DNA of 64,000 nucleotides from Candidatus Staskawiczbacteria bacterium (lineage in GTDB: Bacteria > Patescibacteriota > Minisyncoccia > Minisyncoccales > Staskawiczbacteraceae). The translations under genes and the position numbers were made by a program. Numbering within the stretch: position 1 is the stretch's first letter; every line of letters begins with the position of its first letter. The stretch spans positions 211,877 to 275,876 of the forward strand of contig JBAZUH010000001.1 in the NCBI GenBank assembly GCA_041661545.1, given 5' to 3'. Of this stretch, positions 10,775 through 38,530 are shown piece after piece. The notes below the pieces were generated by a model, which made no database searches, was not told the DNA's origin, and saw only the letters and a program-made list of their open reading frames with translations.

Positions 10775-10882
10775 TGTAGGAGAGCTACCTACTCTCGCGT
10801 TGCCACTACCATCGGCCTTGGAAGATTTCACTTCTGAGTTCGAAATGGGATCAGGTGGAGCACTTCCAGTATAGCTCCCTTA
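10775..10882 (-). rRNA. rrf: 5S rRNA
   Basis: The reverse complement contains CCCATTTCGAACTCAGAAGTGAAA and a GCCGATGGTAGTG core. The terminal helix is GTAAGGGAGC/GCTCTCCTAC. Confidence 0.9.
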
Positions 10883-10969
10883 CATTATTCACGATTTTTA
10901 CAAAATACCTAAAATCTGTATCTATTTAAACTTACGCTTTTTGTGAATCTTCGTATACTCAAATGCTAA

Positions 10970-14016
<3,047 letters not shown>

Positions 14017-35750: not shown

Positions 35751-36067
35751 TTGTTTGTAATAAGTAAAATTAGTGCTTTAAAGTTGTTTCGAATAAGAAG
35801 AATTTCTAGCGACTCTTCTCAAAACGCTTTTAGTTGAAAATCAGTGCGATTCGACATGCTCATCGAACTGAGCCAATCGAACCGTGCTGATAATTCTAAA
35901 GTCGACTACCTAAATACTATTCTTGCGAATAATATTTTTAAAAAAATGATCCACGACCAGCTTCCGCTAGCCGTGCCTTGTTACGACTTAGCCCCTCTTA
36001 CTGAATCTAGCTTAGGCCCTCTTGCGAGGAACTTCGGCTATCCCCAGCTCGCTTGGCTTGACGGGCG

Positions 36068-36912
36068 ATTATCCTCTAGAAACCTAGAGTTGATGTTCCC
36101 ACCGTACGAGCGGATTTCCCGCATACGGCGAGCTCTAATGCATTTTTTGTTTAATAAGATATAATCTTTTTAAACCAGAACTTGTCAAATGTTCTTTTTT
36201 CTTAATCCTTTTCATTATTTCGCAAAAAATTTTAAAATCGTATGCTTTTGATTTTAAATTTAATTTATTGCGCTTAAAAAATGGAATAATAGTTTCTTCT
36301 AAATCATTTCTATTTGTTACTTCGTATCGGTAACAATTTTGATGGTTTAGCCGTGTATCTTTTTGAAAATACACGTTTCCGCATTCAAAATATTTTTTCA
36401 AATCATATAAAATATCTTTATCTTTTTCTATGAGTTTGATATAAAATCTTGGTTCGGCTTTAACTCTTCTTTCATTTTCTAATTTTTTTGCCGGATTTTT
36501 AATATAAACAGTGAAGCTTCCTTCACCATCTATTAATCCAACAATATAATTAGGATTAAGTGACTTGTTAGAGAGATTCCTTGGCATAATATACTATATT
36601 ATGTTTAATATGAATCAGCTGACTTCTGACGCAGCGTTAGTAGTTTCATTATACTACGTCAGATCTCCCCGGGTCAATATATTTTCTTTTCCTGACATCC
36701 TTAGCTAGGCGTTGTGGTATGTTCTTCACTATGCTCACCGCCGATCATAGCTCGAACGCCTATTTTTATGCTAGGGCTACCATTTGTCGCAAAACCCTCT
36801 GGCGTCTACCTCGCGGTAGTTCGCCTGTTTGTTGACTACTCTCTGTTGAGTCTTAACAACAGAGGAAAAGATTTTAACTTTTTAGAAAATATACCTGCCG
36901 GGCGCGTTTATT
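36068..36912 (-). mobile_element. intron/intervening sequence in 16S rRNA at about E. coli position 1399/1400
   Basis: Exon 1 ends ...GAATACGTTCCTGAGTCTTGTACTCAC and exon 2 resumes CGCCCGTCAAGCC. The insertion splits the universal 1392-1406 block and carries a homing-endonuclease ORF. Confidence 0.85.
36135..36587 (-). CDS. LAGLIDADG homing endonuclease (single-motif type)
   Basis: 150-aa ORF inside the 16S intron. YIVGLIDGEGSF is the LAGLIDADG motif. Confidence 0.85.
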   Translation of the reverse strand: MPRNLSNKSLNPNYIVGLIDGEGSFTVYIKNPAKKLENERRVKAEPRFYIKLIEKDKDILYDLKKYFECGNVYFQKDTRLNHQNCYRYEVTNRNDLEETIIPFFKRNKLNLKSKAYDFKIFCEIMKRIKKKEHLTSSGLKRLYLIKQKMH

Positions 36913-37381
36913 GTGAGTACAAGACTCAGGAACGTATTCATCGCCACGTAGCTGATTGGCGATTACTAGCGATTCCAGCTTCATGAGGGCGAGTTTCAGC
37001 CCTCAATCCGAACTGAGATAGGTTTTGGTGCGATTAATCTCCGCCTTACGGCATCGAAGCGCATTGTACCTACCATTGTACCACGTGTGCGGCCCAGGTC
37101 ATCAAAGGGCCATGCTGATTTGGCGTCATCCTCGCCTTCCTCCCAATTATCTCGGGCAGTCCCCCGTGACATTTAAAACACAGGGCAAGGGTTGCGTTCG
37201 TTACCCGAATTAACGGTACGTCTCAAGACACGAACTGACGACAACCATGCAGCACCTGTCTGCACGTCTTGCGAGGGCTCTACTTTCATAAAGCTTTCGT
37301 GCAGATTTCCAGACCTGGTAAGGTTCTTCGCTTGTTGTCGAATTAAGCCACATGGTCCACCGCTTGTGTGAGTCCCCGTCT

Positions 37382-37413
<32 letters not shown>

Positions 37414-38530
37414 TCCCAGGCGGGATACTTAACGCGTTAGCTTCGCCACATGAAGGGTCGACACTTCATATAGCCAGTATCCATCGTTTACAGCGTGGAC
37501 TACAAGGGTATCTAATCCTTTTTGCTCCCCACGCTTTCGTTCCTCAGTGTCAGGATTGTCCTAGTGAACTGCCTTCGCTTTTGGTGTTCCCGACAATATC
37601 AACGGATTTCACCCCTACTCTGTCGGTTCCGTTCACCCCTAACATCCTCTAGTTTAGCAGTATTGAAAGCATCTCAAAGGTTAAGCCGATGAGTTTTAAC
37701 TTTCAACTTACTATACCACCTACGAACCCTTTACGCCCAATAAATCCGGGTAACGCTCGAGGATTCTGTATTACCGCTCCTGCTGGCACAGAATTAGGAT
37801 CCCCTTATTCATATGGTACTGTCTGGCTTGCGCCTTCCTCCCATATAAAAGAACTTTACACCCCTAAGGGCTTCATCATTCACGTAACGTCGCTCCGTCA
37901 GGCTTTCGCCCATTGCGGAAGATTCTCGACTGCAGCCTCCCGTAGGAGTATGGCCCGTGTCGCAGTGCCATTCTTGGGGGTCGCGCTCTCACGCCCCCTA
38001 CCCGTCATAGACTTGGTGAGCTATTACCTCGCCAACAATCTGATAGGCCGTAGGCCATTCCCAAATCGGCTTGCGCCTTTACCCTTGCGGGATTATGGAG
38101 AATTACCCCGTCTTTCGACGAGCTGTGCTCCAATTTGGGGTATGTACCCACGTGTTACTAAGCCGTTCGCCGGTTGCTATTGCTAGCCCCCTTGACTTGC
38201 ATGCCGGTATCCACGTTACCAGCGTTCACCCTGAGCTAGGATCAAACTCTCAAATAAAACATTTGATGTTTGAATTTCTAGTTATAGAATAAACTACTAA
38301 TGTGTGTCCCGCCTTCACTTAAGTGAAGGCGTGGACTAATTCGAAACAACTTTAAAAAACTAATTTTTGATTAAACTTTAATTTAATCAAACCTTTTGGT
38401 TGTTTACTATTTACTTATTTGCTGATTTTAAAAATGGTTTTAAAATCATGCTCATTATTTTCCTTTCCAAAACTTTTTTTTCAAAAATTGTTGGTAGGTT
38501 TATTTTTCAATTTTCTTTCCGTTCTGAATT

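Follow-up and report, generated by a model that had tools for sequence, protein, structure and literature searches.

What kind of element interrupts the single 16S ribosomal RNA (rRNA) gene of a Candidatus Staskawiczbacteria genome (Parcubacteria, candidate phyla radiation (CPR)) at its decoding centre, and how could an intact rRNA be recovered from the split gene? The locus lies on the minus strand of the 64,000-nt stretch of this genome that was analysed here (hereafter, the window), and the interruption is an insertion of 845 nt that contains a gene for a LAGLIDADG protein. Our answer, to which we assign a probability of roughly 0.88, is that the insertion is a mobile group II intron which splits the 16S gene at C1399/C1400 (Escherichia coli numbering) and carries the LAGLIDADG gene in domain IV, instead of the reverse transcriptase (RT) gene that is usual for such introns.

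The 16S rRNA gene is split between C1399 and C1400

The Rfam model SSU_rRNA_bacteria matches the 16S gene at positions 36861-38257 of the minus strand with 1251.9 bits, and the 3′ exon extends to approximately position 35950 on the same strand. Read in the RNA sense, exon 1 terminates in ...CUUGUACUCAC (longer form, ...CCUGAGUCUUGUACUCAC), with 36913 as its last base; the 845 inserted nucleotides run from 36912 down to 36068, AAUAAACGCG...GGAUAAU (longer form, AAUAAACGCGCCCGG ... CUAGAGGAUAAU); and exon 2 restarts at 36067 with CGCCCGUCAAGCC (longer form, CGCCCGUCAAGCCAAGCGAGC). Across the junction, the joined exons read ...GUACUCAC / CGCCCGUC, within a block whose standard E. coli numbering is G1392 ... 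C1399 C1400 G1401 ... U1406. The gene is, then, split by the insertion at C1399/C1400, and neither boundary can be moved by even a single base, because the first base of the intron differs from the first base of exon 2 and the last base of the intron differs from the last base of exon 1.

The empty site exists in nature. Metagenome contigs were searched for the joined-exon sequence AGTCTTGTACWCACCGCCCGTCAAGCC, in which W is a variable position, with at least 120 contigs found. Among the 120 contigs listed, at least 102 have intron-less alleles with T at the W position (...GTACTCAC / CGCCCGTCAAGCC), and several intron-less alleles, for instance, the one labelled L087, are identical to the window exons over 40 nt on either side of the junction. 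Given that these alleles match the joined exons, excision of exactly 36068-36912 recreates a natural allele.

An earlier note on this DNA had described an 845-nt insertion in the 16S gene at 36068-36912, a break at about 1399/1400, a 150-amino acid, single-motif LAGLIDADG open reading frame (ORF) in the rRNA sense, and 325 and 67 nt of non-coding sequence on the 5′ and 3′ sides of that ORF. All of this description stands: the insertion is borne out by direct reading and by the intron-less alleles, the placement of the break by the unslidable boundaries, and the identity of the ORF by its match to the Pfam family LAGLIDADG_1 (67.4 bits versus a cutoff of 23.1; E 2.3e-18), with both non-coding lengths as given.

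A six-domain group II fold kept by compensatory changes

Group I introns are the typical home of LAGLIDADG genes, and the earlier note had considered a group I core possible and recommended a scan against the Rfam group I and group II models. In the scan of 35850-38400, the group I half came back empty, even at E<=10. The group II half yielded two sub-threshold matches, both in the intron sense and in the expected order: group-II-D1D4-1 (RF01998) at 36577-36658, just 5′ of the ORF (23.9 bits versus a gathering score of 35), and then domain V of Intron_gpII (RF00029) at 36093-36133, just 3′ of the ORF (25.3 bits, E 0.035, versus a gathering score of 40), the latter score being this low because domain VI is atypical.

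Because such weak matches are unconvincing alone, relatives of the element were gathered. A scan of one genome per species identified 169 genomes that encode a relative of the endonuclease, from which the best 80 loci were taken. Every locus among these best 80 of 169 that has both flanks carries the intron at the same 16S position. The loci share a pattern in which exon 1 ends in ...YUGUACUCAC, the intron starts with AAUAAA(A/C/U)GCGC and exon 2 starts with CGCCCGUC; those that failed the pattern were inspected individually. Approximately 70 homologous introns were found at this site in Parcubacteria-type genomes. Some of the homologues score above the RF01998 gathering score of 35, namely, L037 (41.6 bits), L079 (40.8), L008 (39.6), L040 (37.9), L074 (37.2) and L058 (36.2).

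The covariation alignment, comprising 67 distinct ribozymes with the ORF removed (462 columns), contains helices that are 86-100% canonical, compared to 8-63% with the 3′ partner slid by one column, and hundreds of double-change cells. For domains V and VI together (69 sequences), pairing reaches 96.6% versus 78.8% after shuffling, with 279 versus 73 double-change cells, and none of 500 shuffles reaches the observed values. Independently, RNAalifold run on 52 of the 5′ halves recovered the same helices, with 81 pairs, 66 of which show compensatory changes. All six domains, I to VI, were located, each with covariation support (Table 1), in a total of 392 non-coding nucleotides (325 nt 5′ and 67 nt 3′ of the ORF), that is, in a compact group II intron. 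Across approximately 70 homologues, compensatory changes preserve this group II secondary structure of six domains.

These results bear directly on the possibility that the LAGLIDADG ORF sits in a group I intron, spliced with a guanosine cofactor and built on a P1-P10 core. Apart from the kind of gene it carries, what speaks for this possibility is that, in relatives, other parts of this 16S gene are occupied by true group I introns, as at positions 138-387 of locus L058 (55 bits, above the gathering score). However, the fold backed by covariation is that of a six-domain group II intron with a domain V, no Rfam group I model matches 35850-38400 even at E<=10, exon 1 ends in C rather than in U, and the intron ends in U rather than in G. 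We therefore regard a group I identity as exceedingly improbable, and the group I core of the earlier note as mistaken. A further additional intron that matches the Rfam group I model lies in the 16S gene of L008 (2083-2805, 35 bits).

Table 1. Features of the intron and its exon flanks; positions are those of the window, sequences are in the RNA sense.
Feature	Positions	Strand	Remarks
Whole intron	36068..36912	-	845 nt; direct reading and intron-less alleles; about 75 loci with an intron at the same site
Intron-binding site 1 (IBS1), CUCAC	36913..36917	-	last 5 nt of exon 1 (16S 1395-1399); includes U1396; complementary to exon-binding site 1 (EBS1) GUGAG
5′-terminal linker, AAUAA	36908..36912	-	additional bases separating the splice site from the 5′ motif
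Degenerate 5′ motif, ACGCG	36903..36907	-	counterpart of GUGYG; GCG invariant, preceded by A and then A/C/U
Domain I	36668..36902	-	closing stem CCCGG/CCGGG, with sub-helices a to d inside
Exon-binding loop, GGCG-GUGAG	36734..36742	-	EBS1 GUGAG at 36734-36738; delta/EBS3 nucleotide G36739
Domain II	36625..36663	-	stem UCUGACGUA/UGCGUCAGA; 95.7% canonical, compensatory changes; RNAalifold
J2/3 and start of domain III, AGUCAGCU	36617..36624	-	family-invariant core; within the D1D4-1 match 36577-36658
Domain III	36575..36616	-	basal stem GAUUC/GGAAUC and variable hairpin; stem 100% canonical, 66 double-change cells; RNAalifold
ORF	36135..36587	-	150 aa, single-motif LAGLIDADG, motif VGLIDGEGSF; Pfam LAGLIDADG_1; domain IV
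Domain IV	36133..36573	-	CUCUAA (36568-36573) / UUAGAG (36133-36138, holds the stop codon); ORF in the loop
Domain V	36099..36131	-	UCGCCGUAU-GCGG-GAAAU-CCGC-UC-GUACGGUGG
Domain VI	36071..36094	-	AUC-AA-CUCUAG-GUUU-CUAGAG-GAU; no bulged adenosine on the 3′ strand
3′ tail, AAU		-	intron terminus after domain VI
Exon 2 start, CGCC	36064..36067	-	16S 1400-1403; C36067 = delta′/IBS3, covaries with G36739

Support for the individual domains varies. The sub-helices of domain I are 89-100% canonical (n=67), compared to 29-63% with a slid partner, and include many double changes, in agreement with RNAalifold. In domain V, the CGC triad and a G.U wobble are invariant, the bulge consists of the 2 nt UC, the loop is the 5-nt GAAAU rather than a GNRA tetraloop, and 10 of the 14 pairs have changes on both sides; in domain VI, 8 of the 8 pairs covary. 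The support for the domain IV stem is weaker than that for other helices (91.8% canonical, only 4 double-change cells). The segment 3′ of the stop codon is 67 nt long in nearly all members of the family; in L029, L044, L073 and L080, it spans 117-190 nt, and the domain V region of L029, L080 and L081 could not be aligned with the rest of the family. An apparent tandem intron in L010, with a second domain V match, was rejected as a scaffolding artefact, in which the intron's 3′ terminus and exon 2 are duplicated around a run of Ns (2064-2222).

The intron appears to be IIC-like, an assignment that comes not from a formal classifier but from the compact size, the CGC triad of domain V, the absence of a recognised EBS2 and the homology to a published IIC family discussed below. 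The IIC traits that it does not display are an EBS3 in a separate loop, a terminator-hairpin context and an RT-type protein.

Many of the metagenome-assembled genomes that combine a Parcubacteria-type 16S gene with the intron bear the label Saccharibacteria, Gammaproteobacteria, Nanoarchaeia, Brevinema or Spirochaetia, which suggests that these labels, on genomes of the L008-L084 series, reflect mislabelled or contaminated bins.

One loop of domain I faces both exons

The exon-binding loop, GG(C/U)(G/A)GUGAG, is present in 67 of the 67 aligned members, always as the terminal loop of a covarying stem of domain I, and its partner in exon 1, IBS1, is invariant in 66 of the 67, the remaining, discordant row probably being misaligned. 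Because both EBS1 and IBS1 are invariant, their pairing is supported by complementarity and position, without covariation; in the EBS1 variant of L049, GUGGG, pairing with IBS1 is retained.

The contact with the 3′ exon does covary. In six loci (L049, L062, L066, L074, L082 and L085), the first nucleotide of exon 2 is U instead of C, and in all six the loop has A instead of G. The alignment holds two of these loci, L074 and L085, which are not close relatives (62% identity), and the only two of its 462 columns in which L074 and L085 share a base absent from all other members are those of the delta pair. The changes from G-C to A-U come, then, from at least two unrelated lineages, and the pairing of the nucleotide 5′ of EBS1 with the first nucleotide of the 3′ exon is a genuine covariation, which pins down the register of exon binding as well as the 3′ splice site. 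This 3′-exon contact adjoins EBS1, as in the delta-delta′ arrangement of IIA introns, with no separate EBS3.

The pairing may extend further. In the window, all nine nucleotides of GGCGGUGAG are complementary to the joined exons (CUCAC / CGCC), and a given 9-mer is expected to occur approximately 0.0015 times per 392 nt. The variable position of the loop is always C or U, either of which can pair with G1401, so the sequence of the loop is compatible with a pairing that continues beyond the first nucleotide of exon 2. No EBS2-IBS2 pairing was recognised and a single exon-binding loop was identified, although no systematic search for the former was made.

The same observations weigh on the possibility that the insertion is an intervening sequence which host RNases excise, with the 16S rRNA left in unligated pieces, or that it is retained in the ribosome. 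Unligated intervening sequences cut by RNase III are indeed found in bacterial 23S rRNA (PMC11270868). Here, however, a complete, conserved ribozyme with binding sites for both exons is maintained across approximately 70 lineages, the covarying pair with the first 3′-exon nucleotide makes sense only if the junction is recognised for ligation, and 845 nt retained between C1399 and C1400 would be expected to disrupt the decoding centre. Both variants of this scenario are, in our view, highly unlikely.

Position 1396 of the 16S rRNA (36916 in the window) is U in this host and A in E. coli, and would pair with the A of EBS1. We considered U1396 as a change linked to the intron and rejected this idea: U1396 is found in all intron-bearing relatives but also in at least 102 of the 120 intron-less alleles with similar flanks, with A in 18 alleles from non-relatives, so that it is a trait of the host lineage. 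Four of the six loci with U at 1400 also have C at 1393 (GCACUCAC).

Atypical splice-site motifs and the proposed splicing route

At the 5′ boundary, the intron begins with AAUAA-ACGCG, rather than with GUGYG directly at the splice site. All family members have 7-8 nt upstream of the invariant GCG, that is, 5-6 extra nucleotides before A-N-GCG. A missing GUGYG at the 5′ boundary is a known variant among rRNA-hosted introns (PMC13190283, PMC4424553). Near the 3′ boundary, the window intron has a paired G at position -6 from the splice site, as do 43 of the 67 members, 24 of the 67 having A there; no member leaves position -7 or -8 unpaired, so that no branch-point adenosine is seen 7-8 nt from the 3′ end. 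Where group II introns usually have AY, the window intron ends in AU; in the family, the final U never varies, and the nucleotide before it can be A, U, G or C.

Several of these observations, together with others reported above and below, weigh against a group II intron of the kind proposed here. Neither the canonical GUGYG nor a bulged branch adenosine is present; the last nucleotide but one at the 3′ end is variable and is A in only part of the family; the window copy scores under both Rfam gathering thresholds (25.3/40 and 23.9/35 bits); the contiguous, delta-type pairing with the 3′ exon is more like that of IIA than of IIC introns; and the ORF begins with an AUG located within the stem of domain III, without an evident Shine-Dalgarno sequence.

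We propose that the intron is transcribed inside the pre-16S rRNA and then folds such that the domain I loop would hold CUCAC of exon 1 and the start of exon 2. The first step would be an attack by water (hydrolysis) at the 5′ splice site held by EBS1-IBS1, rather than branching; hydrolysis seems most likely given the 5 additional nucleotides ahead of the 5′ motif and the lack of a conserved bulged adenosine in domain VI. Ligation of the exons, guided by the delta pair, would restore the sequence of the decoding centre, and the intron would be freed as a linear RNA. We infer excision, ligation and the hydrolytic route by analogy with known systems. According to Brown et al., as cited in PMC11270868, insertions in CPR rRNAs are removed from transcripts. 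Natural group II introns without a branchpoint, which often encode homing endonucleases, are excised exclusively in linear form (PMC4748821); in rRNA introns, splicing upstream of GUGYG accompanies the loss of both the branch site and EBS2 (PMC4424553); and IIC introns splice mostly by hydrolysis in vitro (PMC4748821).

Alternatively, the element could be a group II intron that does not splice by itself, with its own endonuclease serving as a maturase or with a host factor involved, or one that branches from an unconventional nucleotide. Speaking against a loss of self-splicing, Salman et al. reportedly described, in 2012, 16S introns of Thiomargarita as self-splicing. The degenerate 5′ motif, the domain V pentaloop and the atypical domain VI are all compatible with dependence on a protein or with unusual branching, and an unpaired A at position -6 in approximately 28% of the family members could serve the latter. 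Moreover, some LAGLIDADG proteins are maturases (PMC11270868), and the LAGLIDADG-type group II intron rns-952 forms lariats (PMC13190283). Nevertheless, domain VI of the window intron itself has a paired G at -6, and the Leptographium endonuclease failed to promote splicing (PMC4424553). We consider this alternative unlikely compared to hydrolytic self-splicing of the group II intron, without dismissing it.

A single-motif endonuclease under selection

The ORF in domain IV is the only sizeable sense ORF of the insertion, and there is no RT among the ORFs of the intron. The protein has 1513 database homologues, the identical sequence being labelled Candidatus Staskawiczbacteria in NCBI, and residues D20, G21, E22 and G23, which include the terminal acidic residue of the motif, are invariant in 14 relatives. 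Its best solved relatives are in the I-LtrI, I-OnuI and I-PanMI family (PDB; down to E 3e-32), with the query matching each half of these proteins; with one motif only, the window protein would have to dimerise to cut. The ORFs are intact across the family, and the median ratio of nonsynonymous to synonymous substitution rates (dN/dS) relative to the window is 0.12, so that the protein is under purifying selection, as would be the case for an active homing endonuclease or a maturase.

Within the mechanism proposed here, a homodimer of the endonuclease would cut intron-less 16S alleles near the insertion site, and repair from an intron-containing copy would result in DNA homing, whereas RNA-based retrohoming would not be expected. 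The only CPR enzyme of this kind with cleavage tested is I-ShaI, which is encoded in a 23S gene. A partial palindrome of the window, CTTG...CAAG, at positions ±8-11 around the insertion site was considered as a target signature of a homodimer and dropped, given that it is not conserved in other hosts.

The window ORF opens with an AUG that belongs to the 3′ strand of domain III. In most relatives, the start codon comes 8 codons later, immediately past the 5′ strand of domain IV, and at this downstream start a conserved AAGGA of domain III lies 8-10 nt upstream, as a possible ribosome-binding site.

Genomic context

The rRNA genes of the window are unlinked: the 23S and 5S genes (10776-14009) lie approximately 22 kb downstream of the 16S gene (35950-38257), both on the minus strand and separated by protein genes and tRNA genes. 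The 3′ end of the 16S gene (35950-35965, minus strand) reads ...GGAUCAUUUUUUU and is without the CCUCC anti-Shine-Dalgarno sequence, as is the corresponding end in L010 (2355-2375).

Relationship to known introns

The closest published counterparts of the element come from CPR bacteria themselves. Tsurumaki et al. (2024) report 53 group II-like insertions at the site 16IS9 (position 1400) of CPR 16S genes, 39 of the 53 encoding LAGLIDADG_1 and none an RT, and propose DNA-based homing (PMC11270868). The window element has the same host clade, gene and site numbering, the same group II Rfam signal and a single-domain LAGLIDADG_1 protein with no RT, and almost certainly belongs to the set that they catalogued. 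Thus, the comparison with catalogued CPR rRNA insertions that the earlier note had advised gave a positive result, and its statement that the site and the catalytic type were still to be established has been overtaken by the published group II-like insertions at 16IS9 (PMC11270868). In that study, the intron type is assigned from Rfam matches only and positions are stated to be approximate, and the text contains no secondary structure, splice sites or exon-binding sites (PMC11270868). Probably, 16IS9 merges two sites 3 nt apart, 1396/1397 and 1399/1400.

The finding is, then, real but largely ordinary: a claim of novelty fails because the kind of element, the clade and the approximate site have already been published. 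The retargeting relationship described next and the anatomy of the 1399/1400 introns extend known biology rather than overturn it.

The second counterpart is rns-1396 (the S1396 intron of Thiomargarita and relatives; Salman et al. 2012), which Liu et al. (2026) describe as the one bacterial family of LAGLIDADG group II introns; it has a IIC backbone, no EBS2 and a single-motif endonuclease encoded in domain IV, and every member has a 5′ linker (PMC13190283). The text of the survey names Thiotrichaceae only as bacterial hosts; six CPR or uncultured entries, every one of them at 1396, come in through Table S4, and the survey does not list a 1399/1400 family (PMC13190283). Introns of rns-1396 insert at GUACA/CACCGC (1396/1397), 3 nt upstream of the 1399/1400 site of the window (Table S4, PMC13190283), and their EBS1 loop is UGUGUAC, containing UGUAC, whereas that of the window family is GG(C/U)GGUGAG; the window intron falls outside rns-1396 as it is defined there.

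These differences notwithstanding, the ribozymes can be aligned. The first 345 nt of FR690945, from Thiomargarita nelsonii, align over their full length with the Parcubacteria family at 51-55% identity, compared to a minimum of 51% and a median of 64% within the Parcubacteria family itself; the comparison covers the 5′ 400 nt (Table S5, PMC13190283), that is, the 5′ part of the ribozyme as distinct from domains V and VI or the proteins. FR690945 has the same start (AAAUAAAUGCGCC / AAAUAAAUGCGCCUGGCAG, the 5′ linker), the same helices, and the same J2/3 and domain III core, and in both the S1396 and the window introns the EBS1 loop is complementary to both sides of the junction. Judging from these sequence features, the S1396 and 1399/1400 introns are homologous ribozymes aimed 3 nt apart. 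Each EBS1 matches nucleotide 1396 of its hosts, which is A in the hosts of the 1396-site introns and U in all hosts studied here. In the portions of the literature available to us, we found no description of this relationship or of the anatomy of the 1399/1400 family.

Tentatively, and at somewhat less than even odds, we propose that the 1399/1400 introns are a separate, very widespread family that shares an ancestor with S1396. A rewriting of EBS1 would have moved the site 3 nt downstream, matching U1396 hosts, and the 9-10-nt loop would pair continuously across the junction (5 + 4-5 nt), replacing EBS2 and EBS3, with splicing by branch-free hydrolysis. If this is the case, the picture that emerges from the 2026 survey, in which bacterial LAGLIDADG group II introns are rare and nearly confined to Thiotrichaceae, is contradicted. 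Whatever its origin, the family provides approximately 70 naturally occurring versions of a minimal group II ribozyme without retromobility, a clean case of sister lineages whose splice sites were retargeted by 3 nt, and a covarying 3′-exon contact, all of which are useful for understanding how group II introns switch targets and lose branching. Furthermore, since the intron lies inside the universal target of the 1392R and 1406R primers, beside C1400, genomes that carry it are missed or mis-sized in 16S surveys, a known issue for CPR bacteria.

More distant systems share parts of this combination of features. The best solved matches of the protein, the I-OnuI/I-LtrI family (PDB 3r7p, 6bcg and 5esp, among others), have the conserved GxxDGEGSF with its acidic residue, but are two-motif monomers from fungal mitochondria, unlike the window protein with its one motif. 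For the ribozyme, the Oceanobacillus iheyensis intron O.i.I1 and other IIC introns provide a parallel in the small size and in the 5′ strand of domain V, CGCCGUAU, with the CGC triad, as read from a printed primer, ...GAACCGCCGTATACCGA (PMC4748821), rather than from an alignment of the introns. Splicing of O.i.I1 in vitro is almost exclusively hydrolytic (PMC4748821). Annotated IIC introns differ in encoding an RT, in their location after terminator hairpins, in starting with GUGYG and in an apparently normal branchpoint, and a distant blastn search for such an intron with the 5′ half of the ribozyme against 72,556 plasmids produced only chance-level matches (E>=1).

A further parallel is found in the fungal mitochondrial IIB1 introns, most of which encode LAGLIDADG proteins (Li et al. 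2011; Toor & Zimmerly 2002, as summarised in PMC4424553 and PMC4748821). They, too, reside in rRNA genes, have extra nucleotides at the 5′ end, lack EBS2 and the branch adenosine, and encode an endonuclease rather than an RT (PMC4424553), and yet they are built on a IIB1 backbone with an AGC triad, are found in an organelle and mostly encode double-motif endonucleases (PMC4424553, PMC4748821). According to the published phylogeny, the likeness between the fungal and the bacterial syndromes is the result of convergence (PMC13190283).

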